A stretch of DNA of 64,000 nt from assembly GCA_043228905.1 (NCBI GenBank), contig JBHGNT010000011.1:13516001-13580000 (forward strand). The letters are read 5' to 3'. Position 1 is the first letter of the stretch; every line of letters begins with the position of its first letter. The notes below the pieces were generated by a model that was not told the origin of the DNA, made no database searches, and saw only the letters and a list, made by a program, of their open reading frames with translations. The stretch is from Azolla caroliniana (lineage: Eukaryota; Plantae; Polypodiophyta). The position numbers and the translations under genes were made by a program. This document shows positions 1,750 through 25,174 of the stretch, one piece after another.

Positions 1750-4470
1750 CGAGAGACGTCGAGGTAGAGGTCTAACTCTCGTATGTCGTCAACCTCGAGA
1801 TCGGTGGGCTAGTTGAATGTTGCACATTCGATACTGAATATGTGGGTATGAACCAATGAAACCCTAAAGGGGGAACGTAGGCAGTAGCGCTCTCTAGCAG
1901 GCCGGGGGTGAGGGTGTCGGCGGTTCAGTGTAAGCGAACCAATGTGGTGAAGATTTGGGCCAACTAGTCGTCGTTGACTTGCATCATGACATCGGAAGGG
2001 TAAGCGAAACACATCGTGTCAGGGATGTCTAAGTCTGGGGTGATGGCGGTATGGAGGTAGGCCATGCCTTCGAGAAACAAAACAGGGAGGTGTTGGGGGA
2101 AGAGGTCGTTTGCCGGTGGTGGGGGTTCGTCGGTGACTTCCGGGTACAACATAAAGAGTGTGAGGGCATGGTTGTCTTTTGCAAGTACTTGAACGAACGT
2201 CGTCCGATCGGGTGGGTCGTCTCGTCAAAGAACACGCGACGTGTAGCGGCTAACGACTGAAGTATACACGTGACCTGGGCAAGAAGGTTGCGTGGTGTAC
2301 ATGGTATAGTGAAGAGTTCGGAGAGTTGGGATGTCGAGGTCACATACACCGAGAGCGCCTAAATCATATTCAGAGTAACATGCGGAGTAGGGGGGGGTCT
2401 ACACGGTGGAGGCGCCAGTCGTGCCCGGGCTGAGGGCGTGCTTGAGGACAGCTTTGGTTGTACGGAGTTGGGTGATGTCCTTCTCGAGTTCGGCGCACCG
2501 GCGGCAGTGTTTGATGAGGAGGCATCGATTCCGCTTGTTTGCGACCTCCACTTGTTGGACCATAGCATCATGTTCAGCTTTGAGCGTTGTGATCTAGTTC
2601 ATGGGTATGTGATTTGCAACCGTGGAGTTGGCCAGGACCTCAAACTATGTAGAGAGGTCAATAGTCATCGCGGTGAGTTGTGTTTTCGTCTGTTGGTGTT
2701 GTCTGGTGAGGCGTACGTACTCGGCAGAGAGTTCGGTGTGTGTTTGCACTGCTCATTCTTGGTCGTGGCGCCATGTTGTTTGGGCTCTATGGAACTTGTC
2801 GGTGAGTTTGTGGCATCGGGTTTGTTCAACGAGCAGTTCCTTCTTGAGGAGGTCGTAAGCGGCGGCTTGGCATGCGTTGGTATGGTGGGCGTACCTCACT
2901 TCGGTGGCCAAGACCTCGTTCCTTGTGGAGGCCTCTTGCTGGTCGTTGGCAGTCTGTTGGGCTTGTGCATTGACTTGGAGTAGGCGTCGATTCACGACGA
3001 AAGTCATCTTGAGGATGTCTGTCACCATGTCAGCTAAGGGTTTGGGGGTGGTGGAGGGTGTTGGGGGAGGGCGGGCGGTTGTAGTAGTGGTTGGCGTAGG
3101 GCTGAGAACAAGGGCTGGTAGGGGTTCTGGTGGGGTGGTCATCATGGTGGTATCAGGGTTGGATTGGGAGGGAATAACCAGGCTTGGAGATGGTGGTGGG
3201 TTAGGGTTCTCAAGAGGGGGAAGGGGGTTTCGACCTCTAGGGCGTCGATGGGTGGTGGGTTGTGGCGGGCTAGTTTACAGGGTCAACATTGCGGGGTGTT
3301 GTCGATAAGCATGGGGGGTGGTGGTTGGGTGGTCATGCAAGGGGAGGCTAGCAGGGTTTCACCGAGGAGAGAGGTTGGCGAGGGTGGAAGGGCTACCGGG
3401 TTCCATAGGTCACGAAGGGTCGACGTTGCGGGGTATCGTCGATAAGCATGGGGGGTGGTGGTTGGGTGGTTGTGCAAGGGGACGCTGGCAGGGTTTCACC
3501 GAGGAGAGAGGTTAGCGAGGGTGGAAGGGGTGGGGCCACCGGGTTCCGCAGGTCGCGAAGGATCGATTCGATGGTGCAACTGCGAGTACGAGGGATCGTG
3601 GTCATGGTCTGATGGGACACGTAATAGAATGTGGTAGACAATTCTTGGATTTCCGCGGGGGTGAATTCACGTGTCTGGAATTCTTTTACGTGATGGGTGA
3701 TTTCCTCGGGTGTATCGAGGGTATCCTCGGCCACCACATGGGTGATTTGGGGTTGTTTGTGCGTTGGTGGGCGTTCACATTCGCCTTGGTGGACTTGCCT
3801 TAAGAAGTCATGTTCGTGAATGCGGAGATGCTCGGGTTGACCTGGTACGGTTATCTTGCGGTGTCATTCCTAGTAGCGTATGTAAGGAGGAGCTGGAGGG
3901 ACAATGTTGAACTTTCTGCACATGTAACGCATGAGGAACCATGCGAAATTGGCTACCAATTTGGGGCGTGTCTACCATTCCTTCACTCGTCGAACAAGTT
4001 CGTGGTCCCACTGGACCGGTTGAGGATCGCGTGCCCACATGAGGAACTCACTGGTGATATGGGCGATGGCATCTGTGGAGGTGGTGTCACTGATCTGAGC
4101 GATGGCGCTACAACGATCGTGGAGGTGAGGGGGGATTTCGGTGAAACGCCAACCTTCACGTCTGGAATACTCGATGTAGACAGCGGGGGGGGTGGTTCGA
4201 AGAGTACCGTGAGGGGATGCAATGAGGCCGTGAGTGAAACAGCCAGATGTGACCGCCAGCGACAAGAGGGCGGCAAAAATGACGTTGTAGTCGTCATGGC
4301 CGCCACATGAGGTGGGTACGCTTGTGGCGTTGGTGGGGGGGGGGGGGGTGGGGGGGAGTGAGAGAGCGCAGGAAGAAAGAGCAAAAAAAACAGATTTTTT
4401 GACGTACCCGAGGAGGAGGCGGTGGCGAGAAGCAACGCTTGGAAGGCAAGGAGGAGAGCGATGAAACACA
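1750..4470 (-). pseudogene. Extra 3' ORF of G1 (unknown function; Pro/Thr-rich linker and long coiled coil), decayed
   Basis: Chain of minus-strand ORF pieces (3972-4469, 3393-3737, 2753-3145, 2029-2349, 1964-2152) joined by single stops and frameshifts; heptad-like QVNAQAQQTANDQQEA...DLLKKELLVEQTRCHKL. Ends are approximate. Confidence 0.6.
3288..3565. repeat. About 137-bp tandem duplication inside the extra ORF
   Basis: GTCGATAAGCATGGGGGGTGGTGGTTGGGTGG...GGGTTTCACCGAGGAGAGAGGTT occurs at about 3301 and about 3438. Confidence 0.85.
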
Positions 4471-5011
4471 AAATGAGGGTAGAGTGCAACACGAGAGGGG
4501 CTGGAGCACAGTCACAGAGGGAGGAGGAAGAGCGGTGAGGGAGAAGAAAGAGTCGTGAGGGGGAAAGAGGAGTGGGGAAAGGAGGGAAAAAGAAAGAGTC
4601 ATGAAGGGGGAAGAGGAGTGGGGAAAGGAGGTCAAAAGAGAGAGGACCTAAAAATACCATGAAAAATAATATGTAAAAGAACGAGACGAACAAAAATAGA
4701 TAGACCACGAGTAGAAATAATCGGCCGAGGGGTCCCTAAAAATAAAGGGTAACTCTTATATTGTAAATACTAATAAATATACCGAAAAAGACAAATTTGC
4801 GGGCAAGGATGGTACGAGTAATGAATAAATAAATTATTGTCTAATGGGGACGGTAACAAAGGTCAGGGGAGAAGACAGGCCGAGTAGTTGATGAGCGAAG
4901 TGACATAAGGTATGGTGACGGGTTAAAAGGGTGTGGGGTGGGCCAAGGTTTATGTGCGGACGGTAGAGTTGGACAGGAATCCACCGAGGGTTTCATGAGA
5001 GTTTGGGAAAT

Positions 5012-6055
5012 TTAGGGGTTTTTGTGTGGGGTTAAGGTGGCGAGTGTGGGGGGTGCGTTGTTCGAGTGTTGGGGTGCGTTTTTGTGTGGGGTTAAGGTGG
5101 CAAGTGTGGGGTTAAGGACCCAAACCCGTGACGTCCTTTCAAGGGGGAAAAGGGGGGCCTGTGAGGTAGTTCTATGGGGAATTCGACCTCCCAATAGTTG
5201 AGTCCAATCGAGGTCTATGGCCTTAACCTAGGCGGGGTATTTGGCCGATGTGTGCATTTGTCGAGTGTCCCGTGCAGTCGTGGTATGGTTGCAGGTGGGA
5301 AGTCGGCTTCGTTTCGGGACCCAGAAGTGAGTGGCACCTTTGTGTCAGCCTTGGGCGTTTGTGAGTTCTTTTCTTACTCGCCAAGTAGCATGTTCTCCGT
5401 GGCGTGGTCCTTCGGCGACAATCGCTAGGACATTCACCCATTTGCGTGGCATGGATGTCCTTGTTCTGATGTTAGCGTTACTCTAGCCTTGGGTGGCCGG
5501 TGGTTGTGTGAGTTCCTTTTGGTTGGGTGGTTTCACGCTCTGGAGTTCGTCGAGATTGGTGGGACGTGGTTCAAGTGTTGTTGCAACGAGTTTCTCGAAC
5601 CTCACACCATTTGCAATTTGGAATGAGACAATGTTCTTGCTTGGTGACAGGAGACATTCGCTTATGTGACACCAATCCAAACCGAGGAGGCATGGGGTGT
5701 ACAACACTTTCAGTGGGAGGACCTGAACTCGAATTGAGTGGTTGTTGTATTTTGTCTTGATATTACACACAAAGGTTCTGAGGCAGCATGATGTGGAACC
5801 ATCGAAACCAAGGAAGTTATCATTGCACACTTCGAGGTCCGGGAAACCTAGATGTCCCCATGTTTCGAAGGAGAAAAGGTTTAGTGATGCTCCGGTGCCG
5901 ATTACTGCCATTAAAGGTACATCATCAGCGAAGCATGGTAGGTGCGTCATCACGTCATTAGAGTCTATCAACTTAGCCATAGCCGCAAGGTGGGTGTCCC
6001 CTTGTCTTTTCAGTTTCGCTTGCACATTGCGAAGGTCGGTTTCTAGTCGGGCCAT
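5012..6055 (-). pseudogene. C-terminal extension of G1 pol carrying a second retropepsin-like aspartic protease domain
   Basis: LPCFADDVPLMAVIGTGASLNLFS...FLGFDGS...CLLGLDWC; in frame with the integrase GPY/F tail across a single TGA. Confidence 0.7.
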
Positions 6056-9000
6056 TCAGCCTTCGGATGCCTTAAGTTTGGCTTCCACTTCTCGTTGTCG
6101 AGCCGTGACTAGGGCTTCGAGGGTGAGGGGTCCGTAGTAACGTTTGAGCTTGCTCCCATTGATGAATCCTGGGATGTCGAGTCCTTCAAGCGTGCATATT
6201 CGACATGCTCCTGTCTTGGTTATCTTTGAGACTACATAGGGGCCTTCGCCTCGTAATTTCAGCTTCTTTTGTGTCGTTGAGAGGAGAATTTGAGAGCCAT
6301 GTCCCCTTCAACTTGGTCTTTATCTCTTACTTTTTTGTCATGCCATGCTTTTCTATTGGCTTTCTCTATCAAGAGTGCTTGGAATGCGAGAAGATGAGTT
6401 TCGGTCAACCGTTCTAGGTTGTGTAGGTGTGATGGGAGGGGGTTCCCATCCCATCGTTCTTGGATGGCTATCCTGAGGCTAGGGACGAGGAACTTGATGG
6501 GCAGTACCGCTTCTTGTCCATATACTAGTTTGGATGGTGTGTGGTGAGTTGCTACTTTCTAGGAGGTGCAGAAGGCCGACAATGTGGCTTGGAGTTTGGT
6601 GCTCCAATCGGACCGCGAAGCTGCAATTATTTTCGTGAGTACTGCACATAACACCTTATTAGTGTTTTACGCTTGTCTGTTGCACTAGGGGTAATAAGGG
6701 GAGCTCTTGCGGTGCGTCACCATAAACTCGCCTAGTAGGTGTGTTATCACTTCGTTGAGGAAATGGGAGCCTTGGTCGCAAATGATCTCGAGCGGACATC
6801 CAAACCGTGTGATGACATTTTTGTATAGGAATTTGGCGGTGCTACATGCATTAGCATTAACGCAAGCTTTGGCTTCCGTCCACTTGGTAGCATAGTCAGT
6901 GGCAGTGATTATGTATCGATTGAAGTTGAAAGTTGGGCTAATTGGGCCGATAAAGTCGTTACCCCATTTCTCGAACGGTTGCCAAGCCACTACCGGGTTT
7001 AATGGGATGAAATCCGCCTTTAACGGGTGTTTAAAACGCTGGCACTCGTCACACCGGCGTACATATTCGTATGTGTCTTTAATTAGTGTTGGCCACCATA
7101 GGCCGGATTGGAGGATCTTGCGTGCGGTGACCTCGTGATTGAAATGACCACTTCCGCCTCTGCAATGAGCTTGTTCGAGGACGGCGACAACATCATGGTC
7201 TGTTACACGCCTCTGAAGTACATCGTTGTTGCCTCTTTGATACAAGTTTCCTCTGAGCATCGTGAAGGGGCCACATTTTCTTAACAAGACATGTGCTTAT
7301 GCCCGACTTAGTTGTTTTAGGAAGGATGCTCCTTCGGTTAAGACACGAACGATGCCTAATGCCCATGATGGTACGGTGTCGATCGTGAATAATGTTGCAT
7401 CTGGCGTTTCATCGTCGACTCCAGTAGCTTCTTCTCCATTTAGCATTCATGAGAAATGATCGGCGAGTACATGGTCTTTTCCTTTTCTCACCACCACCTT
7501 GAAGTCAAACTCGAGTATAGTTACGATGCATCGTGATATGTGTCCCCTGGCGTGAGTCTTGTTTACCAAGTAGAGGAGGGCTTGATGATCTACGAAAAAC
7601 GAGAAACGTGATGCCAAGAGATAATATCGGAACTTTTTCACACTGTAAACCATTGCTAAAGCTTCTCATTCCGTTGTGGAGTAATTTTGTTCCGTAAAGT
7701 TCAGCTAACAACTGGCAAAGGTGATCAATAGGTCGAGTGCTCCTTCGCCAGGTTGAGCGAGTACCACACCAATCACGAAGGCGGAAGCATCGGTGTGAAC
7801 GTGGAATTCTTTGTTCCAGTCTGGGGATCGGAGGATGGGGGCCTTAGTTAAGCACTCCTTCAAGAGCTTGAACGAGCGGGGGCACTCTTCCGTCCAGGTG
7901 TACTGCTTTAGTAAGGCGTAGGGTGGTCTTGCCTTGTCTGCGAACATCTTAATGAAGCATCTATAGTAACCCGCGTACCCCATGAACCCTTATAGTTGTT
8001 TCTCATTCACAGGAGGTGGCATGTCAAGGATGAGCTTTACTTTTGCCTCATCAGTCGAGATCCCATGTTGGGACACAACATGACCTAATGTGAGTCCGTG
8101 TTTGACCCCGAATTAACACTTGAAGGGGTTGAGGGAGAGTTGATAGTCCCTGCACTTTTCGAACGGCAAGTGGAATAGTGCCAAGTGGTCATGCCATTTC
8201 AAATGGCAGCATAAATCGTCGACATAGGACTCCACCCCTTGTCGTAACCTTGCCACAAAGATGTGGTTCACTGCCCTTTGATAGGTGCTCAGGGCACTTG
8301 TGAGCCTGAAAGACATCTGTTTATATGCGAACGTACCAAATTCGGTGGCAAAGGCCGTCTTTTGTTGATCCTTGGGCACCACCGAGATTTGGTTGTACCC
8401 CGAGAACCCATCGATGAAGTTATAGGCGTTTGCTCCCGCAATTCTTTCGAGTAAGTGTTCGATCTAGGGTACCAGGTAGTTGTCTTTGATGGTGGCTTTG
8501 TTGACTTGGCGGTAGGCTACACATGTGCGGATTTGGCCATTCTTCTTCGGGATGACTATGATCAGGGGGACCCAAGTTGTTCGTTCAATCGGGTAGATGA
8601 TGCCCGCGTCCAACATTTTATTGATTTCGACATTTACTTGTTGAGCGTAGTTATGGTTCATTAGGCGCGGTCTTTGTCAGATTGGGCGGTTGTCGGCTCG
8701 CATGGGGATGCAATGGGTGACGAGTTCAGCCGGTACACCTTTCATATCTACATACGACCATGCGAACACATCTCTAAATTCTGTAAGGAGGTCGATCAAC
8801 GACGTCTCCTCGTCCAACTGTAGATCCGTGGCGATGAACACTGGTTTGGGGTCCACCCCATTTCCGAGATTGATTTCTTTAACTCTCGCCGGTCCGTCAC
8901 ATGCCTCGCCTAGGATGTTAGGGGTGTGTTGTGATCTCTTACAAGCCACCTCCCTACTCCCTTTTTCATAGAGTTTGAATTGCTCTGGGAAGTCTACCTC

Positions 9001-9167: not shown

Positions 9168-12100
9168 AACACCGAGTCATTTGAAACAGGTAATATGTCG
9201 CATTTTGAGAACTGTCCATCAAAAAATAACACAAATTAGGGTGATTCACAAAAAGGGGTGTCGCATGCGTAAAGGAATTTTAAAAATGACCCAAAAATAT
9301 ATTGATTTTTAACATGTACGGAAATTTAGGTGTTCAAAAAAATGCCTAAATAATGGACATGCCAAACTTACAAATGAATGTCCAAAATGACTAACCCCAA
9401 TATTTATAGAAATTCTAAATCCAAATCTTGATGTGCAATACAATATTTATAGTTAACGTATCAGGACAATCATTTTTCAAGTTTATGTCATCATCTTCAT
9501 ACCCATTAGATGAACTAGTACGAGTTTATGAGGTCTCATCCTCATCATCAATGGCAACTAATGCATTGTGTTGATCCAATTGCAATCCAACCTCATCGCG
9601 TTTATGAGTCATGCTTCTTGTTTGTCTTTGTGTTGTGTCTGAAGCCACATTCCAGATCCTCTTTTAGTATCTTCATTGTGGTCTGTCACAGATAACTTGT
9701 TTTGGTCAAAGATAAGTCATACACTAATATATAAACATTATCCAATGTAAGAGTAGATGTGCTTGATGCATCTTTCCTCCTCACTTTTTGGTTATGATAT
9801 TTCATTATGTACTTTCCATTTACAAGATTAGATTATGTGAGAGAAGCTTTCTACCAAAATCATTAGAATCTAAAAAATGTCTTAAAGATGTTTTCCATTT
9901 TTCTTAGATTCTCATAGTAAGCCTTTGATGTCATACAGAAATCTGATTCATTCCATCTAGATTTGACGCAACATGTCGAATTTTACTCTATACATCTAGA
10001 ATTGGATATAATGCATCAAATTCCTGTAAGTCTTGGAATTTTTTTTAAAATTTCCATTAAAAAAATACTGTTGCATTTTAATGCATTGCATTGAATTCTA
10101 GCTACATAGACTAAAATATGATACATTGCATGGATTTCCCGAAAATACATAAATAAATACAAATTGAAAAAATAAAACATTTTCCCATAAATAAATAAAT
10201 AAACATTTTTTATTTTACTCGTAAATAAATAAATAAAAATTGAAAAATTAGATTTCAATGGAAATCCAATTTCGTGCATCGGATTCAATTGAAAATCCAA
10301 TTTCTCTTATTTGTTTGAAAATTTTATTATTTTTTGAATTGTTTTTGAATTTGTTTTTATTTTTCCCATAAATAAATAAATAAAAATTGAAAAAATGGAT
10401 TTTAAACGGAAATCCAATGCACTGCATCGGATTTCCGTAGAAAATCCACTTTTTCTTATTTTTTTCCAAATTTTCAGAGTTTTTAGAATTTTTTTGGTAT
10501 TTTGTTTGTCTATTTTCTCATAAAAAACTATATAGAAATTGAAAAAATCAATTTTCAAAGGAAATCCGATGCATTGCATCGGATTCAATGCATCGGATTT
10601 CTATTGAAAGTCCACTTTTTGCTATTTGTTACCAAATTTTCATATTTTAAAATATTTTTTTGTATTTTTTTCATTTTTTTTCATTTTTTCCCATAAATAA
10701 ATAAATAAAAATTGCAAAAAATGGGTTTTCAACAGAAATCTGATGCACTACATCGGATTTCTATTAAAAATCCATTTTGTCTTATTTGTTTCCAATTTTT
10801 CAGATATTTTGAATTGTTTTTGTTTTTATCATAAATAAATATATAGGAATTGAAACAAATGGATTTTCAACGGAAATCCGATGCACTGCATCGGATTTCC
10901 ATTGAAAGTCCACTTTTTCTTGTTTGTTTACAAATTTTCTTATTTGTTTATATTTTTCTCTAAAAAAGTGTTAAAAATAAACAAATTGTGATTTTCTCCA
11001 TTTAAAATGATGTGGTTGAAAACAGATCATTTTCAACAGGATTTTCAATGGAAATCCGATGCACTGCATCGGATTTCCATTCAAAATCACTGAGTTTCAA
11101 CAGAAATCCGATGCACTGCATCGGATTTCCGTTGAAAGTCCAATATTTTTCTTATGTTTTTTCATAAAACATTAATTTGCAATTGAAATCCGACTCAATG
11201 GTTCAGATTTTGTTGAAAATGTAATATTTTTTTATTATCTCATTGTTTTATGAAAAACCTAAAAGAAATTTGGATTTGTAATTCAAATTCGATGTAGTGC
11301 ATTAGATTTCGGTTGGAAATCCACTTTTTTAATATATTTTTATTTATTTTTTGAAAAAATGAAAAACAATTGAAAAGAAAGAGGATTGCCAGCTAAAATC
11401 TGATGCAATGCATCAATGTGTCTAGCTGTATAGACTACGATCTGATGTAGTGTATCGGATTTCAATTGAAAAGCCGTTTATTACTTTTTTATATGGAAAA
11501 TAAATAAATAAATAACATTGGAAAAAGAAAAAAGAAAAATGGATTTTCGACTCTAATCCAACGCATTGCATTAGATTCTAGCTATATATACTAAAATATA
11601 ATGTAGTGCATAGTATTTTAGCTAAAAATCCATTTTTTATTTTTTAATGGAAAAAAATTTAAAAATTACAAAAAAAAAAACTTGGATTTTCAACTGAAAT
11701 CTAGTGCATCGCATTGGATTCCAATTAAAAATCCAAGATTTTTTATTTTTTCAAATTTTATTGTTTCAAATTTTCAATGGGTTTTAGATTAGTTTTCTGA
11801 CACAGGTATATAATATAAAACTTACATCAATTTAGATTAATGTTATATTCTATTCTTCAGTTTGATGTTACCTGTGCAATTTCATTCTACTGTCATGTAC
11901 TACTAAAACATACGCCTTAAAGATTATCAGGAACTCTGTTGCATTAGAGAAGGACCCTTGAGCAAGTTAATGTCATCAAAATGAGGATCCAAGGTATCTG
12001 GGGTTGTCCTGATCAAGACCAAGAAGTTGGGGCAAAGCATATCAATAAAACTTAGATGTTCCAGATGACTTTTAGAAAACTTGTGGAACTATAGATGAAG

Positions 12101-12917
12101 ACGTAGGGCAACTTGTTGAATTAGAAGACGTTTCAGAGTCTGAACATACTAACAATTCAACTTAGTGTACTGACGAAGCCAATGAGGAAAATCCTGATGA
12201 AAGAGCTAATCCTGAGTAGACGGCTTTACCAGACTTATTATTCTATTGAATGGTTATGGCTTATTGTAAATTTTGAACAATATGAATTGTTAAATTTTGA
12301 CGTAATATATAAGTTGAGCTTACTTATAATTTTCGTGTATCAATCATTGAACTTAGAAATTAAGTATACTTGTATGTGTACATGTTATCTAAACTCTCCT
12401 TTATCATTTGGGGTATATCGGAGATAAGTTTATACTCTATCATTTACTCGTATGATTGGAATGTTATTGTAGACTAGTTTATTTATACATTGACAGTGTC
12501 ATGTATCACGTGTCAATGGAAATTTTCTCTTGACATAGTAGTATCTCTTAATTGCAAGGTTCACAATTTGCTTTAAGATGTATTATATTTAAATATACAC
12601 ACATAATTAGAAGAAGTCACTTATTCAATGGGGCATGCTTTTTAGAATATGCACAAGGACCCATGTTACTATTATACTTGTGTTGACAAATACACCCCTG
12701 TCTAAGATTTGGAAAAAAACATGGTAGATAGAATATACGTCGGATGATTTTGTTGACATGATATTAGTTAGTTCTTTTTTTCGCTATGTTTTCATAAACC
12801 ACATACACATGCGTCGTGCCTTGTTGAAATTCTGCTTAAATAAGGCATTTTTTAACATCTCACTAAGAAATGAAAAAGAGAATGCGACATATTACCTGTT
12901 TCAAATGACCTGGTGTT
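9168..12917. mobile_element. Non-autonomous TIR DNA transposon, 37-bp TIRs, probable TATA target duplication; superfamily unassigned
   Basis: 9168-9204 AACACCGAGTCATTTGAAACAGGTAATATGTCGCATT is the reverse complement of 12881-12917 with 2 mismatches. TATA lies at 9164-9167 and 12918-12921. Removing the element and one TATA restores the G1 pol frame (...HALSTNDAIYSIGTKC...). Confidence 0.88.
10010..11740. repeat. Array of about 12 imperfect palindromes (core AAATCCGATGCA-C-TGCATCGGATTT) separated by AT-rich spacers
   Basis: Clear copies at about 10400, 10555, 10730, 10861, 11040, 11095; more degenerate copies at 10255, 11185, 11275, 11390, 11545, 11690. Confidence 0.9.
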
Positions 12918-12921
12918 TATA

Positions 12922-13728
12922 TTGCATCGTTCGTGGAGAGAGCGTGCACCCAATTCATCTCTGACGCATCAAAAGCTACGGATTGGTCTTCTCTCGCATT
13001 CTTTGCCCTAGGATTAGTTGATTTTTGGGGAAACGGTTGACCCCTTGCCAAGATTTGAATTGTCTTTGTGGGGTTACATGCTAGGAGGTTGGTCTCGAAC
13101 TCGGTGGTTTCTGACCAGTCGTCCATGAGAGGGTTGCCTTCTTGTTCGTGCACTTTTTGTGTGTATGCTTTGATGCGGAAGGTTTTGTTGTTTTTACGCA
13201 TATAGATTGTATCATTCCCAAAATCCATCACAAAGAGGCTTACACGTAGGAATGGTCTCCCTAGTAAACACTCGTAAGCCACATGATTGGATGATCTTGT
13301 GATGACGAAGGTGAGATTGAACTTGACCTCGTGGATAGTGAAGTGGTGTGTAGGGATCATGCCTTTTGGCCGTTGGATAGACCCATTTGCCATTCGGAGT
13401 TTGATGTCCGAAGGAAACATTTTTGGGCTCCCCCACTTACACCAACATTCATAGCTAACTATACTTACCCCTGCTCCGGTGTCGATGATCGTGTCACACA
13501 TCGTGCCGTTGACGCAGACGGGGAGAGTGAAATTAGTATCGTCTCTCTCGAAGTGAGCTTCGCATATATTTACCAGTGTTCCTTCGGGTTTTTTGGGGAT
13601 TGTGGTCATATGAGGGATGTGGGTGTGTATCTTTTCTCCATAACCTACTGACAAGCCTCCATTGAGGCGGCGAAGGATGTCATGCCATGGTTGGATGTCC
13701 AGTTTGAGCAGCTCTTCAAGTGTAAACT
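12922..13728 (-). pseudogene. G1 canonical aspartic protease region
   Basis: LPVCVNGTMCDTIIDTGAGVSIVS...LRMANGS...YECLLGRPFL, upstream of RT on the same strand. Confidence 0.9.
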
Positions 13729-14246
13729 TGTTGAGCAACAAGCTCAACCGGATCCAGATCGGCTGAATAACCCTGAGCCGGATCGGCATTCGGAAGGATG
13801 AGCTAGATCAGTGAGACGGTGAGCAAGTGGGCCAGTGAGTTGGGGAGCCGGTTAGCCGGATCCAACAATAATCGGAAGCTTAGTGATAGCCTAGGCTACT
13901 AGGTAGTTAATGTCTCATAGTTAGTGTCAGATGCTCGTGTGAGCATTGAAGTACACCGTACTTCTGTCAGTCCGTATGGACTTGTATAAAAGTGTTCATT
14001 GAACACAAACAATGTACAGACTAAGTAATATTTTAGATTGAGTTTCTGTGTGCTCTCTCTCTCTCTGTCTCTCCCACATATTGTGTATACTCTAAGCTCT
14101 CCATTAAACCTGCGTTTTCGGTTTTCGGTTTTCTATTGCTTCTGCACAACGTATTCTTTTACATGGTATCAGAGCGCGAGGGTTGAGAACCTCTGCAACC
14201 AACATAGCTTGAAAGGAAAACAAACCAAGAAGAACAGGTAAAACCG

Positions 14247-17200
14247 ATGGACAAAGGAATGGCTAGCTCGCTCCTGGTGGAGAAGCTCGATAGATCCAAC
14301 TACACATCTTGGTCATACAAGATGCACCAGTACCTAGGTACTAGAGCTATGTCGACGGAACTAACGACACAACACCTGATGCGACACACAAGGACTTCCC
14401 AGTGTGGGAACAAGCGGCAAGCAGAGTGATGTACTTCTTCGCGTCCAGTGTCGGAGACCAGCTGCTAAGCCATATCCAAGATGCCAAGACGCCAAAAGAA
14501 GCTTGGGGAAACCTGAAGAAGGTTTTCGCCACAAGCACAACAGCCAAGAAGTTGCAGCTCAGGCAGGAGCTCAGCAATGGATAGAGGCATGGCAAGCTCA
14601 CTTCCAACAGAGAAGCTCGACAGAACCAACTACGCGTCTTGGTCCTACAAGATGCACCAGTACCTGCTCGGGCACGGCTACTGGAGTTATGTCGAAGGAG
14701 CTAATGACGCGGCACCCGAATCGACACACAGAGACTTCCCGTCGTGGGAGCAATCGGCGAGCAGGGTATTGTACTGCTTCGCGTCGTTGTGGGCGAACAA
14801 CTATTGAGCTATGTTCAGGATGCAAAGATGCCAAAGGGTGTGTGGGAAAATCTAAAGAAGATTTTCGCCGCGAGCACCACAGCCAGGAAGCTTCAACTCC
14901 GACAGGAGTTGAGCAACCTACGACAACACGACTTGTCGGTGGCGGACTATACCTCGAAGATCAAGGATATCTGCGACTCCCTCGCCTCCATAGAGGTGAA
15001 CATCGAGGAGAGCGAGATGGTCCAGATCTGTCTCGGAGGTTTGGCGTCGAAGTTTGGAGCGTTCCGAACGGCTGTGTGTACCTGGGAGAATACGTTGTCC
15101 TTCTTTGACTTACAGTCAATGCTCCTAGTAGAGGAGAACCACGCGGGTGCATCTACAAGCACGCACACCAATAGCAGAATGTTGTACACGGAGGGAGATA
15201 GGCCCCGTGGACGTGGAGGACGAGGCGAGTTGGCACGCAATGGAGGCGGCCGACGAGATTAGGGAAGAAGGCACCGAAGTGATGCCGACAGCAACTCCGG
15301 ACCCTTCGGAAACAGGGGGAGTCGAAGCGATGAGAACCGGCAAGGGAAGTCCATCGCGGAGTGTTGGTACTGTGGCAAGAAAGGCCACAGGGAAAGTGAG
15401 TGCTGGAAGAAGCGCGCCGATTCGGAGAGAACTGGTTCCGGGAACGGCTCCAAACATACCGACAAGGGAAATCGGCAGCGATCGCACTACACCGAAGACT
15501 CCGGGAGAGCCGGAGAAGGGACTGCCTTCGTGAGGAGACACGAAGCAAACTCAATGAAACAGACCACCCCGAGATCGGACGAGGTGTTGTACGTAGACTC
15601 CGGCGCGTCAAACCACATAACGAGCCATAAGGAGTGGTTCTCGTACCTTGAAAAACCGATACAACTTGGAGTAGTCACAACTGGAGACGACACTCCGCAT
15701 CCAATCGCGAATGTCGGAGAAGTTCCCCTTAGCCATGTCGGGAAGAAAGGGAAACTCATGAACATGCTGCACGTCCCGACAATCACGAAAAACTTGGTCT
15801 CGATCGGACAGATCGTGGACTAAGGGATGGAGGTTCGGTTTACACACATCGGGTGCTTCATTCAGGAAGAAGGCCGAGTGATTGCGCAAGGGCGCAGAGA
15901 CGGGAGGATGTTCATCCTCGACTCCACTGACGGCGGCACCGCAATGTTCGCGAAGGGACAAAAGACCGAGTCAGACATCGACTTGTGGCACAAGCGGATA
16001 GGCCACATCAACCACCAACGGCTTCAAGATCTGCAATCGAAACAAGTAGTATTCGGATTGCCCAAATTTAGTGGCCGAAAGGCACAAATTTGTGAAGCCT
16101 GCCAGCTCGGGAAGCAACACCGACTTCCTTTCCCAAACGAGCAAAACCGGAGCCGGAATAAGCTCGACCTTATACACTCCGATGTATGGGGGCTGACACA
16201 AAACGTTAGTCTTGGCGGGAGCTAATATTTCGTCTCCTTCATCGACGACCACACGCGGCACACGTGGATCTACCTCATTGAGAGGAAGAGCGAAGTCTTC
16301 GACTGCTTTCGGGACCTCAAAGGGTTCGTGGAAACGGAAACGGGACGAAAGATCAAGTGCCTGCGGTCGGATGGCGGGAAAGAGTACTTCTCCGGTCAAT
16401 TCAACGATTATCTACAACAAATGGGAATTCGGCGCGAATTCAGTTGTAGATACACGCCGGAGCAGAACGGCGTGGCCAAGAGAAAGAACCGGTCAATTGT
16501 GGAAGCAACACGGGCAATGCTGGAGGAGAAGAGCTTGCCCAAGTTCTACTGGGCCGAGGCGGTAAGAACCGCGGTATACATCCAAAACCAGATCGGAGAC
16601 AAAGTGTTGGCGCACGAGCTATATTTTGGAACGAAGCCGAACTTGCGACACTTGAGGGTGTTCGGTAGCATTGCATATGTGCATGTACCGAAGGAGAAAA
16701 GGAGGAAGTTGGACGCAAAGGCCGAGAAATGCATCTTGGTCAGTTACTCGAACGAGCAGAAGGGTTATAAGTGCTATAACCCTCGCACCAAACAAGCGCG
16801 TGTCAGCCGCGATGTTGTGTTTGACGAGTCCGTTCTTGGTACCAGCCCCCGACTCCAATCCGAGCTCTGACGATGAGGTCAGAGAGGCCGAGATGGCTCC
16901 GGATGAGCCCGAAATCGAGACCCGCGACGAGAGCCCGATTTCACTCTGGTTAAGTGGACCGATTGGACGACTGAGTCGGTACAACCAGTCCGATGAAGAG
17001 CCGGCGAGTAGTGGAGACTCGGTCGTGCATTCCCCACGCAGGAAGCCGAGGAGACGGCTTACGCGCAAAGAGAAAGGGAAGAAGAAGGTGTCGGATTCCG
17101 GCACGGATAGGAACGAGTCAAACCGACACGAGTCGACTCCGAGGGAACCGGTGACGGGTCTTTAAAGGTGAAGACCGCGTTGACCGAGAAGGCCTCGACA

Positions 17201-19394
17201 TCGGCTAATGTGAGATTACGCCGATCTACCCGCCAGAAGAACCCTGTTTTGCGGTTCGGATACAACGAGTACATGGCACATCATTATGCGTACATGACCC
17301 GTGTAGCGGAAGTCCGTGAGCCGGAGAGCTACGTAGAAGCGGCTAAAGACGCGAATTGGCGTGTCGCGATGGAGGAAGAGATGCACGCATTGGTGGAGAA
17401 CGAGACCTGGGACCTGGTTGACACACCAACAGGGGTAAAACCGATCGGGTGTAGGTGGGTGTATAAGGTCAAGTACAACACCGATGGCTCCTTTAACCGG
17501 TACAAGGCTCGGCTAGTGGCAAAGGGCTACGCGGAGAAACACGGTATCGACTACGATGAGACGTTTGCCGGTCGCGAAAATGACGACCGTCCGTGTTTTG
17601 CTCGCAATTGCTGTGGCAAAGGGGTGGCACTTACATTAGATGGATGTAAAGAATGCGTTCCTGCAAGGTGACCTTGAGGAACAGGTGTACATGGTACAGC
17701 CCCCCGGATTTCACTCCGGAACGAACTCCTCGGCAGTATGCCGACTGAAGAAGTCCCTTTACGGACTCAAACAAGCCCCGTGTGCCTGGAACGCGAAGAT
17801 CACGCAACAACTGCGTCGGATGGGCTTCATCACGACAAAATCAGACTCTTCCTTGTTCATCCGGAAAGGTCGACTCGGACCGGTTAGTATTTTACTATAT
17901 GTTGATGACTTGGTCATCACCGGCGCGGACCTAGGTGAAATCGACCGCGTGAAGCTCCAGCTTGCGGCATCGTTCGACATGAAGGATCTGGGGGACCTTC
18001 ATTACTTCCTCGGGATCGAAGTGATCCATACCCCCGAAGGCATATTGATCAGCCAACGACATTACGTGCTGGGTATGCTCTTCAAACTCGGGATGGCCGA
18101 CTGTAAGTCCGTCTCGACTCCTCTGGACAGAACCATCAAGCTTCGTCCCGATACGGGAAAGGTATGCGACCCGACGAGGTTCCGCCAAATTGTCGGAAGC
18201 CTCATATACTAGACCATCACCCGACCCGACCTCAGTTATCCGGTTGGGGTGATCAGTCAGTTCATGGCGCGACCTACCGAGGAGCACCTTCAGTGTGTGC
18301 AACGCATACTTCGGTATGTCAACAACACTAAGGACCGGGGACTGCTATATCGGACTGGTGCAGCCGCGCAGTTAGTCGGCTACACCGATGTTGATTGGGC
18401 TGGCAACGCCGCCGATCGCCAATCCACGTCTTGATACGCGTTCTCCCTCAGGAGTGCCGCGATCGCGTGGAGCAGTAAGAAGCAGCCGACAGTTGCACTG
18501 TCGAGCACCGAAGCTGAGTACCGAGGAGCGGTTGTCGCGACATGCGAAGCCATATGTTTGAAGCGGCTACTTAAGGACCTGCAAGAGGAGGTGTCAGATC
18601 CGACGACGATCTACTGTGACAACCTCAACAGCATCCAGCTCGCGAAAAACCCCGTTTTCCACGCACGGACCAAGCACATTGAGGTGCACTACCATTTCGT
18701 CTGTGAGCGTGTCCTTTCCGGTGAAGTCGACCTTCAGTACGTGCCGACAGATCGGCAGATTGACGACATCTTCACCAAGCCTCTTGGTCTGGACAAGTTG
18801 CGGCAATTCTCCGGTGCGCTCGGATTGCGTCACCTCGACGTGCCAAACTTGAGGGGGAGAACAGTCCCGAACGACCAAGCAAGGCAGCAGGAAAGGAGCG
18901 GAGACCGCGACACCACCGAGTCGGTTGACTCGTTTGTCGAGTTCGACTACTTTGGATTGGCTGAAGAAGCCGAGGGCGGACCCGCGGAAAAGTTCGGAAG
19001 AGGACAAAAGGGGAGCAGCCGAAGGAGAGAGCCGAAGCCAACCATGCATGGGGGAGATGACGCCATCGAGGGCGAGAAGACCGAAGACGAGTTGGAGACA
19101 GCCAACTCGGATGAGAGCGAAAACCGATCGGAGGTAGCCGAGTCGGTTCGGATGTTTGATTTAGATACGCTGAATCAACCGAGGCCCAAGCGGAAGAAAA
19201 GGCAGCAGGAAAAGCGTCAACACCACAACAATAGAAGAGCTGATAAGGGCCACATGAGCAAACAAGCCGACCGGAAGGGTCGAAGCGTGCGGAGTCGAAT
19301 AGGTCGAGGAGCGCAAGCGAGGCGAGAAGCCAGGAGGAACCGGTGCTGTGAAGATCCCGAAGAGCCTCAAGTTGAGCTTGAGGGGGAGTGTTGA
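14247..19394 (+). pseudogene. Copia A gag-pol (gag start duplicated; CCHC, PR, INT, RT, RH, charged C-terminal extension), with stops and frameshifts
   Basis: KLDRTNYASWSYKM; CWYCGKKGH; YVDSGASNH; WHKRIGH..CEACQLGK; LRSDGGKEY; MDVKNAFLQG; LLYVDDLVI; HARTKHIEVHYHF. Confidence 0.93.
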
Positions 19395-19619
19395 GAGACA
19401 AGCTCAACATCGGCCAGATCGGCTGAAGAAGCCGAGGACCGGATCGGTTGGGACCGATCGGTTAGGCCGAGTGCGTAAACCGGGAGGTCGTTAGGAAAGA
19501 TATTCCGTGAGGAATATATTTGGGAGTTAGTGTAGGAGCTCTTGATGAGCATTGAAGTATTGTCAGTACTTCGGTCAGTCCTTCTGGGACTTGTATAAAA
19601 GTGTTCACTGAGCACGTCT

Positions 19620-22600
19620 TGTTGGGATTTCGGTCCCTCCGGATGGGATGTCCGGAGATGAATGACGGAAAGTCCGGAGGCTGTTACGGAACCGGAGGAT
19701 GAAGAGTACCCGGCATGAAGCCGGATGAAGACCCCGGCTACGGAGCCGGATGACGAAGAGAAGACCCGGCTACGGAGCCGGATGATGAATGTACCCGGAG
19801 AGAGATCCGGATGCGGGGACATAGTTGTGAATATGTTTGCCAAGGGCCCTTGTGGCTACATTTGTAAATAGCCCGAAAAGTCATATGTGTATAAATATGA
19901 CTTAGGGCAAACAGTTCAGTCGTTGTTGCTTATTTTTCTGTTTTCACTTAGAGAGAGTGAAGTGAGCAGCCGGAGAGAGAGAGAGAGAGAGACGAAGAGG
20001 TCGTTGCCTCTGTGTATTGCCGCCGCCTGTGGCGAAGATAGTGAGCTCAAGGTTGTTGCCTTGAAGCTTCACCATTGTACATCCCTGTTCATAGTGATAG
20101 TTGGAGTTTGAGGACTCCCGTGGTTTTTCCCATTTAGGGTTTTCCACGTAAAATATCCTGTGTACTCTTCTCTCTATAGTCTTCGTGTACTTTGTATTTC
20201 CTATTTTCTGTGAGTTGATCCTATTCCGTGGTTGTGGCCGAGCACCGTTTGCAACAAAGTGGTATCAGAGCGACGGTAACACAGAAAATGGAAGGCGGCA
20301 GCAGCGGGCAGCCGGGGATGATGGTGCTGAATGCGCAGAACTACGCCGACTGGAAGATAAAGATGGAGGATCTGCTCATTGTTCGGGACCTGTATGAACC
20401 GATTGACAGGTCGGAAATACCGAAAGGGGTACTTGAGTCGGAGTGGAAGCTCCTGAACCGGAAAGCCGTAGCGACGATCCGACAATATGTCGATGTAAGC
20501 GTCCTACAACATGTGGCGAACGACACCAACGCATATGAGATGTGGAAGAAGCTGTCGGGCCTCTACGAGAGGAAGAATGCGTTGAACCGGACCTCCCTGA
20601 TGAGGAAGATAGTGAACCTCAAGTACCGGGACGGCGAGAGTATGGTCGAACACGTAAGCACGTTCATGGGATTCGTGAATCAGCTTGCGGCGATCAAGTT
20701 CCCGTTGGAGGATGCAATGCAAGCCATCATCCTGATGTGTACATTGCCGGACAGCTGGGAGAACTTGGTGGTGACTCTCAGCACTTCCTGTACAGAAGAT
20801 AACTTGTCCCTACAAACGGTAAAGACAAGTATTTTGAACGAAGAAGCGCGTCGGAGAGACAAAGAACCGGCCTCCGACTCGAAGGCGCTGCTTACCGAAT
20901 CGGAACGGGGAAGACAATGGAACCGGAGTCCGCAAAGACGGGAGAAGTCGGGGACCCGGTCGCAGTCAAGAGGAAGACCCACATGTTTCCACTGTGGGAA
21001 GCCGGGGCACTTCCGGAAGAATTGCCGGCATTACCAAAAAGACAACGGAGGCGACGACACCGATTCGAAGAAGTCACCGGAGAGAAACGGTGCATACCGG
21101 GGAGCTACGGACCGGAGAGGTCCGGATCGGCGAGGGCAGGACCGGAAAGGAACGACGGCACTCGCGGCAAGTGAAGAGGAGATAATGCTCATTACCGAAG
21201 AGAGGGAGCTGAACCTTGCCGGTGAAGAGATGACCTGGGTGGTCGATTCCGGAGCGTCGTTCCACCTGACCCCGGAGAAGAAATACTTCTCATCCTACAC
21301 AGCCGGTGAGCATGGCTGTGTCCGGATGGGAAATGAAGGTACATGCCGGATTGCCGGCATAGGAGACGTGTGGCTGATGACATCAACCGGATGCAAGATG
21401 CTGCTGAAGGATGTCCGACACGTTCCGGAGGTTCGACTGAACCTGATTTCGGCCGGGAGGCTAGACGATGAAGGCTACACGGGTAGCATCCGGAACGGTG
21501 TCATGAAGTTCAGCAAGGGGAGCCTGATAGTGGCTCGGGCCCGGAAGGTCAACACACTGTACCTGATGAATTCCCGGCTATGTCCGGGAGAGCTGAATGT
21601 GGCAGCCGACACTGCCGGTGAGCTGTGGCACAAAAGACTGTGCCACATGAGTGAGAAGGGGATGAAGAGGCTTGCAGAAGACAACCTCATTCCAGTGAAG
21701 CATGTGCACCTGGAGAAGTGCACTGATTGCCTGGCCGGTAAGCAGAACCGAACCTCCTTCCACTCAAGGCCACCGACGAGACGTAGCGCACCATTGGAGT
21801 TGGTGCACACTGATGTGTGTCAAGTAGAAACGAAGTCACATGGCGGAGCCCAGTACTTCGTGACATTCATTGATGACCACAGCCGGAAGCTGTGGACGGC
21901 GCCGTTGAAGACAAAGGACCAAGTGTTGTCCGTCTTCAAAGAACTCCACGCGAGAGTGGAAAGAGAATCCGGCAAGAAGCTGAAAGCGATACGAGCGGAT
22001 AACGGAGGGGAATACCGGGGGCAGTTCGAGGAGTACTGTCGCTCGAAGGGAATCCGGCTCGAGTTCACTGTGCCGAAGACGCCGGAACTGAACGGGCTGG
22101 CCGAGAGGATGAACCGGACCATAATGGAGAGGGTCCGGAGTATGCCGGCGCATGCGAAATTACCCAAGGGGTTTTGGGCTGAGGCGATGTCGACGGCGAC
22201 ATATGTGATAAATAGATCACCCTCAGTACCTTTGGACGGAGACACGCCGCAGAAAGTGTGGACCGGTAAGGAAGTGTCCTACCGGCATCTGAAGGTGTTC
22301 GGGTGTCTCGCATACGTGCATGTGGCGAAGGACCGGAGAGGAAAGCTAGATCCGAAGACCCGGCCATGCATATTCCTCGGTTACGGCGACGACGAGTTCG
22401 GCTACCGAGTATGGGACCCGGTCGACAAGAAGATATTTAGGAGTCGAGACATCATCTTCATGGAGGACAAGACACTCGCCGACTGGGAGTCGGAGAAGAA
22501 GGTGAAGAGCTCCAAGTCGACCGGTGAGGATCAACTCTACAAGGAGCAGTCCCGACCGGCAAGGGACCGGTTAACACTCGAGGATCCGGCCGAAGACGAT

Positions 22601-25008
22601 GAAGAAACCGAACCGGCCGAAGAAGATGAAAACGATACCGGAACCGGCCCCGATCCCGAAATGGATTCGGATGAAGAAGAATCGGAAGAACCGGTTACCG
22701 AAGCTCCGGAACGGAGATATCCTCTAAGAGAGAGAAGGGCCCCCCGGAGATTTCCGGAACCAGAGCACGTGCTGCTAACCGACGAGGGGGAGCCGGAGAG
22801 CTTTGAAGAAGCAAAACATGACACCCAGAGCCGCAGGTGGTTGAGTGCCATGCAGGACGAGATGGATTCCCTGCATGAGAATCACACATATGAACTTGTG
22901 GAGCTGCCGAAAGGAAAACGGGCACTCCGTAACAAGTGGGTGTTCAAGCTGAAACCGGGAGATGCCGGAAACCCCCCGAGATACAAAGCCAGGATCGTGG
23001 TGAAGGGGTTTCAGCAGAAGAAGGGCGTCGACTTCGACGAGATATTTGCCCCGGTAGTGAAGATGACCTCCATCCGGACGGTGCTGAGCATAGCGGCAAG
23101 CATGGACCTCGAGATAGAACAGATGGACGTGAAGACGGCATTCCTTCACGGTGACCTCGATGAAGAGATCTACATGCAGCAACCGGAAGGATTCGAGAAG
23201 AAAGGGAAGGAGCACCTGGTATGCCGATTGAAGAAGAGCCTTTACGGACTGAAGCAGGCTCCCCGGCAATGGTACTGGAAGTTCGACTCCTTCATGACCG
23301 ACGAAGGGTACCTCAAAACGCAGTCCGACCACTGCGTGTTTGTGAAGAAGTTCGAAGGAGGAGACTTCCTAATACTCCTCCTGTACGTGGACGACATGTT
23401 GATCGTCGGACGGGACCAGGTCAAGATACGGATGCTGAAGAAGGCTCTTCACCGAACCTTCTCAATGAAGGACCTGGGTCCGGCGAGGCAAATACTAGGG
23501 ATGCACATCATCCGGAACCGGAAGAAGAAGCAGTTGTGGCTGTCACAAGAGAAGTACGTGACGAAGGTGCTTCACCGGTTCAACATGTCGGAAGCAAGAC
23601 CGGTCGGATCGACCCTCCCGGCAAACTGCAAGCTGTCCAGCAAGCAAAGTCCCAAGACAAAGGCTGAAAAGGAGGATATGATGAAAGTGCCGTATGCCTC
23701 AGCCGTCGGGAGCTTGATGTACGCCATGGTGTGTACGAGACCGGACATCGGATATGCAGTCGGAGTGGTGAGCCGGTACATGAGCAATCCCGGCAAAGAG
23801 CATTGGAACGCGGCCAAGTGGATACTCCGATACCTGAAGGGCACGGCAAACGTGTGCCTCCGATTCGGCTCCGGTAAGCCCGAACTCGACGGCTTCACCG
23901 ATTCGGATATGTCGGCTGATGCAGATACCAGCCGGTCCACATCAGGGTATGTGATGACGTATGCAGGGGGAGCCGTTTCGTGGCAGTCGAGGCTGCAGAA
24001 GACGGTTGCGTTGTCAACCACGGAGGCGGAGTACATGGCGGCTGTTGAAGCCGGTAAGGAAATAATATGGATGAAGAACTTCATTAGAGAGCTCGGTATC
24101 CGGCAGGAGGAGTACCAGCTCTACTGCGATAGTCAGAGTGCCATCCACCTTGCGAAGAACGCGGCCTACCATTCCTGGACAAAACACATCCAGCGCAGAT
24201 ATCACTGGATCCGGGAAAGGATAGAAGACAAGGAGTTCGTGCTGACGAAGATCCACACGGACGAGAACGGGTCGGATATGCTGACCAAGGTGCTTACACC
24301 CGACAAGCTGGAAGCATGCCGGAAGAGGATCGGGTTGGAGAGACATCCCATGCCGAAGTGAAGGGGGAGTTTGTTGGGATTTCGGTCCCTCCGGATGGGA
24401 TGTCCGGAGATGAATGACGGAAAGTCCGGAGGCTGTTACGGAACCGGAGGATGAAGAGTACCCGGCATGAAGCCGGATGAAGACCCCGGCTACGGAGCCG
24501 GATGACGAAGAGAAGACCCGGCTACGGAGCCGGATGATGAATGTACCCGGAGAGAGATCCGGATGCGGGGACATAGTTGTGAATATGTTTGCCAAGGGCC
24601 CTTGTGGCTACATTTGTAAATAGCCCGAAAAGTCATATGTGTATAAATATGACTTAGGGCAAACAGTTCAGTCGTTGTTGCTTATTTTTCTGTTTTCACT
24701 TAGAGAGAGTGAAGTGAGCAGCCGGAGAGAGAGAGAGAGAGAGACGAAGAGGTCGTTGCCTCTGTGTATTGCCGCCGCCTGTGGCGAAGATAGTGAGCTC
24801 AAGGTTGTTGCCTTGAAGCTTCACCATTGTACATCCCTGTTCATAGTGATAGTTGGAGTTTGAGGACTCCCGTGGTTTTTCCCATTTAGGGTTTTCCACG
24901 TAAAATATCCTGTGTACTCTTCTCTCTATAGTCTTCGTGTACTTTGTATTTCCTATTTTCTGTGAGTTGATCCTATTCCGTGGTTGTGGCCGAGCACCGT
25001 TTGCAACA
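19620..25008 (+). mobile_element. Full-length young Copia family-B element (B1, Tnt1/Tork-like): LTRs 19620-20256 and 24372-25008 (637 bp), PBS 20260-20271, PPT about 24360-24369, TSD CGTCT
   Basis: LTRs appear identical by eye; CGTCT at 19615-19619 and 25009-25013; single uninterrupted ORF. Confidence 0.97.
20288..24361 (+). CDS. Copia gag-pol polyprotein (1357 aa from ATG 20288)
   Basis: CFHCGKPGHFRKNC; WVVDSGASFH; LWHKRLCH..CTDC; IRADNGGEY; MDVKTAFLHG; LLYVDDMLIVG; KVPYASAVGSLMYAM; YCDSQSAIHL. Motifs resemble the Tnt1 polyprotein. Confidence 0.96.
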   Translation: MEGGSSGQPGMMVLNAQNYADWKIKMEDLLIVRDLYEPIDRSEIPKGVLESEWKLLNRKAVATIRQYVDVSVLQHVANDTNAYEMWKKLSGLYERKNALNRTSLMRKIVNLKYRDGESMVEHVSTFMGFVNQLAAIKFPLEDAMQAIILMCTLPDSWENLVVTLSTSCTEDNLSLQTVKTSILNEEARRRDKEPASDSKALLTESERGRQWNRSPQRREKSGTRSQSRGRPTCFHCGKPGHFRKNCRHYQKDNGGDDTDSKKSPERNGAYRGATDRRGPDRRGQDRKGTTALAASEEEIMLITEERELNLAGEEMTWVVDSGASFHLTPEKKYFSSYTAGEHGCVRMGNEGTCRIAGIGDVWLMTSTGCKMLLKDVRHVPEVRLNLISAGRLDDEGYTGSIRNGVMKFSKGSLIVARARKVNTLYLMNSRLCPGELNVAADTAGELWHKRLCHMSEKGMKRLAEDNLIPVKHVHLEKCTDCLAGKQNRTSFHSRPPTRRSAPLELVHTDVCQVETKSHGGAQYFVTFIDDHSRKLWTAPLKTKDQVLSVFKELHARVERESGKKLKAIRADNGGEYRGQFEEYCRSKGIRLEFTVPKTPELNGLAERMNRTIMERVRSMPAHAKLPKGFWAEAMSTATYVINRSPSVPLDGDTPQKVWTGKEVSYRHLKVFGCLAYVHVAKDRRGKLDPKTRPCIFLGYGDDEFGYRVWDPVDKKIFRSRDIIFMEDKTLADWESEKKVKSSKSTGEDQLYKEQSRPARDRLTLEDPAEDDEETEPAEEDENDTGTGPDPEMDSDEEESEEPVTEAPERRYPLRERRAPRRFPEPEHVLLTDEGEPESFEEAKHDTQSRRWLSAMQDEMDSLHENHTYELVELPKGKRALRNKWVFKLKPGDAGNPPRYKARIVVKGFQQKKGVDFDEIFAPVVKMTSIRTVLSIAASMDLEIEQMDVKTAFLHGDLDEEIYMQQPEGFEKKGKEHLVCRLKKSLYGLKQAPRQWYWKFDSFMTDEGYLKTQSDHCVFVKKFEGGDFLILLLYVDDMLIVGRDQVKIRMLKKALHRTFSMKDLGPARQILGMHIIRNRKKKQLWLSQEKYVTKVLHRFNMSEARPVGSTLPANCKLSSKQSPKTKAEKEDMMKVPYASAVGSLMYAMVCTRPDIGYAVGVVSRYMSNPGKEHWNAAKWILRYLKGTANVCLRFGSGKPELDGFTDSDMSADADTSRSTSGYVMTYAGGAVSWQSRLQKTVALSTTEAEYMAAVEAGKEIIWMKNFIRELGIRQEEYQLYCDSQSAIHLAKNAAYHSWTKHIQRRYHWIRERIEDKEFVLTKIHTDENGSDMLTKVLTPDKLEACRKRIGLERHPMPK

Positions 25009-25174
25009 CGTCTTATGTACAGACTGAGTATTATTGTTGAATATATTTTTTGTGTCTTCTCTCACTCTCTCTGTCTCTCCTGCGTATACCGTGTAAGCTC
25101 AAGCCCTCCATTGAACCTAAGTTTCCTTCCTTCTGTTCGGTCTTCATACCTGCTTCCGCACGCTACTTTCTACA

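Follow-up and report, generated by a model that had tools for sequence, protein, structure and literature searches.

A 64,000-nucleotide stretch of the Azolla caroliniana genome (contig JBHGNT010000011.1 of assembly GCA_043228905.1, positions 13,516,001 to 13,580,000; hereafter, the window) carries on its minus strand a decayed Ty3/Gypsy element, whose pol region, from about 9250 to 4850, contains reverse transcriptase (RT), RNase H (RH), and the zinc finger and core of the integrase (INT). The family of this element encodes a second retropepsin-fold aspartic protease (PR2) behind the integrase, in addition to the ordinary protease (PR1) before RT. Long terminal repeat (LTR) retrotransposons have been described with one protease, which processes the whole polyprotein. 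The second protease is real and lineage-wide and is, apparently, undescribed. A dual-protease architecture had been proposed in a preliminary description of the window; it is family-wide, with one-frame Gag-PR1-RT-RH-INT-PR2 open reading frames (ORFs) found in both near and distant families.

All PR2-side motifs quoted in that description were located on the minus strand, in a single frame running from the INT tail through a linker and PR2 into a C-terminal tail. These are GEGPYVV (6250–6230) and INGSKLKRYYGP (6163–6128) in the INT tail; VMTHLPC (from 5953), VIGTGAS (5905–5885), and CLLGLDWC (5692–5669) in the PR2 region; and HFWVPK (5329–5312) in the tail. The SH3-like profile PF24626 (SH3_Tf2-1) was matched weakly by one member of a set of 27 PR2-type proteins (A2). 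VIGTGAS has Gly at the position where relatives carry Asp. Both motifs that had been named for PR1 are present upstream of RT, and the two proteases of the window, characterized earlier as quite different, are 27–28% identical. The window copy is dead: it contains stops, a frame break, and insertions, and has lost the catalytic Asp. The earlier reading had overlooked the insertion between PR1 and RT, the frame break near 6265, the Gag start beyond a nest of Copia elements, and the loss of the middle of Gag from this copy.

Eight close relatives of the window's PR2 ORF were identified among 57 candidates. In two of these, no stop interrupts the reading from the INT tail across the linker to PR2, and DTG is present in three. 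The one longer protein obtained in a further search was P0009, with 1981 amino acids, which is weak evidence, as the search was limited to about 2000–2100 amino acids; the P0009 cluster has 22 members, of which 15 were listed and eight of these examined, P0115, P0116, and P0118 among them. Uninterrupted family ORFs with the same domain order are P0009, P0115, P0116, P0118, P0113, and P0123, the lengths being 2553 amino acids in P0115 and P0116 and 2454 in P0118. In the long ORFs, a single frame covers Gag-PR1-RT-RH-INT-linker-PR2-tail and both proteases have DTG; the one-frame polyproteins P0009, P0115, and P0118 each contain two stretches matching PF13975/PF13650.

Contig depth was assessed in three DNA runs, the best of which may be the window's own sample. 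Within the family, the catalytic codon reads Asp in 98–100% of this depth, and the codon at the linker stop is a sense codon in 92–95%. The Asp loss and the linker stop are, therefore, specific to the window copy. This agrees with the earlier suggestions that the linker TGA is a decayed codon and that the catalytic Gly is a changed Asp; in other family copies, the segment has Asp and lies in an uninterrupted frame. In a fourth DNA run (X11), from another organism, the region had no cover, which does not prove that it is absent there. Summed depth over PR2 is similar to that over INT and RT; this was not counted, since depth cannot rank the parts.

A query spanning the INT tail, linker, PR2, and tail gave 103 matches among 1.84 billion representatives. 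The INT-tail motif was present in 44 of them. Seventeen of the 44 have a catalytic-loop motif 50–125 amino acids downstream, 26 end within 89 amino acids, and the remaining long match (P0066) has LDTG further downstream. Among the 17 INT-linked loops, 16 contain Asp and nine the full D[ST]G (DSG in five, DTG in four). Seven further matches display a protease followed by the Trp tail, with D[ST]G in six. In the metagenome loci, DSG was found at PR2 in five of seven, and the motif was not seen in L006 and L007.

A distant family is represented by locus L002. Its open frame of 2383 amino acids encodes PR1 (LDSGA), RT, RH, two INT zinc fingers, INT, a helix, PR2 (LDSGA..ILGRSW), and repeats of the Trp motif; the order Gag-PR1-RT-RH-INT-PR2 is the same as in the window's family, with DSG in both proteases. 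Identity between L002 and P0115 is 59% in RT, 34% in PR1, and 23% in PR2. Ten PR2 domains from separate families are 16–44% identical (median 26%). L002 also has a polypurine tract (PPT) and an LTR of the type TG..CA, the LTR being followed by a site resembling a primer-binding site (PBS), TGGCGCCG, which may be of the tRNA-Asp type. The zinc-finger/tether region of INT is tandemly duplicated in L001, L002 (4400–4900), L004, and L006, with two PF17921 stretches in L002, and is single in the window's family. Also, the Trp tail motif, W..(LL.AQG[YW])..G....W.PK, occurs in up to four repeats in other families.

Four of 28 looked-up proteins have named records: two are from Adiantum nelumboides, one from Adiantum capillus-veneris, and one is labelled Enterobacter. 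The hosts of this element lineage are plants, likely ferns, and relatives were not found in the viral contigs or prokaryote genomes searched. The protein labelled Enterobacter (P0016, named as an integrase) is a piece of the plant element type (INT, helix, PR2) and likely comes from a plant contaminant contig.

The assignment of PR2 to the retropepsins rests on relatives and on structure. The window's own PR2 ORF had no match in Pfam and none among PDB sequences. The profile check proposed earlier was, therefore, negative for the window ORF, while its relatives match PF13975 and its model matches retropepsins. PF13975 was matched by the close relatives P0001 (E = 2.6e-6, 28.4 bits) and P0003 (E = 2.7e-6, 28.3 bits; cut-off, 28.2) and by 14 of the 27 members of set A2. 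The A2 profile matches DDI2, DDI1, and ASPRV1 (best E = 1.5e-7). Both the D[ST]G loop and the LLG.xW motif are present in the window's family and in distant families, the window copy having Gly for Asp. The model of the window PR2 was obtained from a 40-row alignment with a predicted local distance difference test score (pLDDT) of 92.8. It matched Ddi1 protease domains best (Foldseek E = 5.9e-8), followed by retroviral proteases; superposition on 7d66_B gave a VIA Z of 16.1 and a root-mean-square deviation of 1.9 Å over 113 aligned residues. In a protein atlas search, the whole INT-tail/PR2/tail piece reached only scores below 0.8, while PR2 alone led to retropepsin clusters at 0.96.

The retroviral-like aspartic proteases Ddi1/Ddi2 and ASPRV1 (PDB 7d66, 4rgh, 3s8i, 27jk) are the best structure and profile matches and share the fold and the catalytic loop with PR2. 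They differ in being cellular genes and are only 14–17% identical to PR2. No Gypsy protease structure was ranked, so the Ddi1 match shows fold and not descent.

PR2 is also predicted to form a homodimer. Two copies of the P0003 PR2, predicted without an alignment, scored 0.69, compared with 0.00 for the best control. The predicted interface includes Asp24-Asp24 and Thr25-Thr25 contacts; at least 75% of contacts are shared between runs, with pLDDT of at least 81. The mark applied to dimers, which the P0003 pair passes, is attained by 21 of 30 microbial homodimers of solved structure and none of 23 monomers; for eukaryotes, the counts are 17 of 29 and none of 30, respectively. This pass may stem from the likeness of PR2 to solved retropepsin dimers.

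Conservation was compared between P0115 and P0118, which represent two subfamilies. Identical residues number 116/119 in PR1, 192/200 in RT, 128/130 in RH, 162/165 in the INT core, 105/122 in PR2 (86%, as against 97% in PR1), 49/58 in the linker, 363/466 in the spacers, and 45/45 in the Trp motif. Mid-frequency contig variants in PR2 number 19; ten of them are synonymous, where 23–31% would be expected (p = 0.005–0.04). Judged from these sequence comparisons, PR2 is under selection that is weaker than that on the core enzymes, with the catalytic motif held across deep divergence.

The preliminary description left the choice between a second processing enzyme and a pseudo-protease used for dimerization or targeting. 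An active second enzyme is favoured, since families only about 26% identical in PR2 have kept both D[ST]G and LLG.xW. A non-catalytic module that dimerizes or targets the integrase would agree with the position of PR2 in the slot of targeting domains, with its lasting fusion in the ORF, and with the predicted dimer. However, Asp accounts for 98–100% of the family contig depth at the catalytic codon and D[ST]G recurs across families, which makes such a module decidedly improbable.

A tree of proteases (68 rows, 127 columns) placed PR2 in two groups: 21 PR2 rows stand beside PR1 (support 87/83), and the window's family of nine stands apart. Approximately unbiased (AU) tests, performed with 11 of the 68 rows left out, leave standing both a single PR2 clade (p = 0.14) and a clade of PR1 plus PR2 (p = 0.43). 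The lack of a single all-PR2 clade in the tree, together with a window full of nested elements, is what could be said for PR2 as a leftover of a nested element that happens to be in frame. We find this scarcely credible. Uninterrupted ORFs from both near and distant families have the same junction, divergent contigs (run X5, 5846–6160, 52 other letters) bridge the INT tail into PR2, and one PR2 clade is not rejected. A remnant is also unlikely, as is a pseudo-protease, because PR2 domains of separate families keep D[ST]G at 16–44% identity. The open-frame relatives and the context count of the 44 INT-tail matches refute this origin; retropepsin profile and structure matches exist among the relatives and other copies have the segment, so the refuting outcomes named in the preliminary description did not arise.

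The tree is likewise relevant to the idea of PR2 as a redundant or back-up enzyme for processing, or as one half of a PR1/PR2 heterodimer, with no substrate of its own. The homology of PR1 and PR2 (28% identity), the similar junction before each, and the common clade left standing by the AU test are compatible with it. Pure redundancy is, however, hard to square with the retention of both domains in families that are 59% identical in RT, and PR1 remains strongly conserved. We regard this explanation as improbable, if slightly less so than a non-catalytic module. Two tandem retropepsin domains without RT were detected in the unnamed proteins P0042, P0043, P0077, P0096, P0110, P0093, and P0100; in the protease tree, the first domains mostly cluster away from the second ones.

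On the evidence of sequences and models, we consider it rather probable that these elements represent an Athila-like, likely fern lineage of Ty3/Gypsy with a one-frame Gag-PR1-RT-RH-INT-helix-PR2-tail polyprotein, in which PR2 is a likely active accessory aspartic protease freeing itself and the tail from INT. Encoded in one ORF with Gag, PR2 would be produced in a 1:1 ratio to it, packed in the particle, and able to pair there. It would then dimerize in the particle and cut itself and the Trp-motif tail off the integrase. The putative release site is a short hydrophobic stretch about 30–35 residues before the catalytic Asp. Hydrophobic-then-acidic stretches precede PR2 (ILAV..NEEDE, IAMV..KDEDD, IMAV..AEHED, and LTLS..SEDEE) and are placed like the stretch before PR1 (IEVCEAHFESDD). 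PR1 would presumably stay the main processing enzyme, and the substrate of PR2 may be narrower or different, the simplest candidates being the junction between INT and PR2 and other proteins of the particle.

Alternatively, PR2 of a broad fern Gypsy lineage could be an active, host-directed counter-defence protease that is released from the integrase with the Trp tail and cuts silencing or restriction factors, the conserved Trp motif guiding the cleavage of host defence proteins. PR2 changes about five times faster than PR1 while keeping its catalytic motif; the tail motif is invariant between the subfamilies and, as could be expected of a docking motif, occurs in repeats in some families; and counter-defence roles have been described for accessory viral proteases (PMC6357015). 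The faster change of PR2 also fits weaker constraint, though. No description of the tail motif or of a partner was found in the literature searched. We hold the host-directed role to be unlikely, albeit the foremost competitor of self-release from INT.

Several points weigh against an active, self-releasing PR2 in an intact family. The long family ORFs come from short-read assemblies, in which repeat copies may be merged, so that they show the layout of the family and not one intact insertion. Since the query contained the protease, its matches are biased towards keeping one. Among the 17 loops linked to INT, eight deviate from D[ST]G (DLG in four, and DFG, NSG, DTR, and DPR), which probably reflects decay in dead copies. 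The pre-PR2 junction of the window's family, HPVAIAKLID, follows the hydrophobic-then-acidic pattern less closely than those of the distant families. The alignment behind the model with pLDDT 92.8 took in 12 ordinary Gypsy proteases, and folding of PR2 with nine close relatives alone failed (pLDDT 32.7). In conservation, PR2 falls behind PR1 (p = 0.002) and exceeds the spacers only marginally (p = 0.058), a level that would also fit relaxed selection. The variant test used 40 of 101 listed places and took each change alone.

The element is a non-chromovirus and is, by its layout, Athila-like. The Ty3/Gypsy order Gag-PR-RT-RH-INT is present in the relatives. Pfam scans of P0115, P0118, and L002 revealed neither the additional RNase H (aRH) of the Tat clades nor the chromodomain that follows INT in chromoviruses. 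Athila, a non-chromovirus of the OTA group, is described in Neumann et al. (2019; PMC6317226) with a single GAG-PROT-RT-RH-INT ORF, no aRH, no chromodomain, and a long 3′ region with an extra ORF on the same strand, which are the features seen here. The fern element differs in having the second protease and the Trp tail after INT, and its 3′ ORF does not match PF03078. Same-strand ORF regions follow pol in both the window and L002; in tblastx comparison, they are unrelated to each other. Extra domains C-terminal to the integrase are also found in TatIII (aRH) and in chromoviruses (CHD/CHDCR), as stated in the same paper, where the domain is an RNase H or a chromodomain and not a retropepsin. 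The earlier remark that PR2 occupies the slot of the chromodomain is correct as to position after INT; PR2 did not, however, replace a chromodomain, because the element is a non-chromovirus.

In the REXdb paper (Neumann et al., 2019; PMC6317226), the extra domains listed are only aRH and chromodomains, with none for Athila, Phygy, and Selgy, and the table of matches to extra ORFs holds no protease. The word fern is absent from its main text, which may be why the double-protease lineage was missed. Novikova et al. (2010; PMC2864245) report, from ferns, only fragments of Athila-like RT. Plant (+)RNA viruses have accessory, self-releasing proteases (PMC6357015) that resemble PR2 in standing beside a main protease in a polyprotein; the likeness is a functional analogy only, as these enzymes have other folds, belong to other virus groups, and are usually N-terminal leaders. 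The preliminary description was aware of no earlier account of the architecture, and our full-text searches found no LTR retrotransposon with a protease after the integrase, within a coverage that is thin for subscription journals and does not extend to Repbase, GyDB, and the REXdb sequences.

A conserved, catalytically intact second retropepsin behind the integrase marks an old lineage, and PR2 offers a clean marker for classifying fern elements. It also raises the question of why two proteases are kept, be it for split processing, regulated release of the integrase, or attack on host silencing factors.

The features of the window copy and of the elements inserted in it are as follows.

Table 1. 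Features of the decayed Ty3/Gypsy element and its insertions in the window.
Feature	Position	Strand	Remarks
Decayed extra 3′ ORF region downstream of pol	1780..4300	-	Same strand as pol; no Pfam match; limits approximate
C-terminal tail after PR2	4850..5575	-	5312-5443, conserved Trp motif W..(AQG[WY])..W.PK; window copy has two stops
PR2, second retropepsin-fold aspartic protease	5576..5953	-	Catalytic loop 5885-5905, Asp lost; LLGLDW 5669-5692
INT-PR2 linker, charged, predicted helical	5954..6127	-	Stop 6058-6056; hydrophobic junction at its end, may be cleavage site
Integrase C-terminal tail (GPY / SH3-like)	6128..6304	-	Joined to INT core via frame break near 6265
Integrase zinc finger (H2C2) + core	6305..7185	-	Pfam PF17921, PF00665
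RT + RNase H	7507..8850	-	Without additional archaeal-type RNase H; limits mapped from P0115
Later insertion between PR1 and RT, 3.75 kb	9168..12917	.	Inverted ends, TATA both sides; DNA-transposon-like
PR1, ordinary protease before RT	13175..13531	-	IIDTGAG at 13489, CLLGRPFL at 13270; PF13975 E 4.5e-8
Nested Copia elements between PR1 and Gag start	13730..25172	+	Family Gag residues 159-857 absent
Gag N-terminus of same family	25173..25646	-	75% identical to P0115 residues 1-158; may be window copy or second copy

The LTRs, PBS, and PPT of the window copy were not found; the ends of the element are cut by Copia insertions. A purine run at 5141–5159 was considered as PPT and rejected, as it sits on the opposite strand. 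The 3′ ORF region comprises about 800 codons with a Pro/Thr-rich part and a coiled-coil-like part and is unlike the 3′ ORF of L002. An array of repeats of about 36 bp at 25660–26250, upstream of the Gypsy gag start, is probably the 5′ untranslated region. The 3.75-kb insertion contains, at 10240–11740, an array of about 12 subterminal repeats that are palindromic. The outer two LTRs of the Copia nest are only about 80% alike and lack a target-site duplication, which, together with the lost middle of gag, suggests recombination between two Copia insertions. Two young Copia copies, located at 19619–25008 and 46599–51936, are 91% alike, and their LTR pairs are 100% and 99.8% identical.

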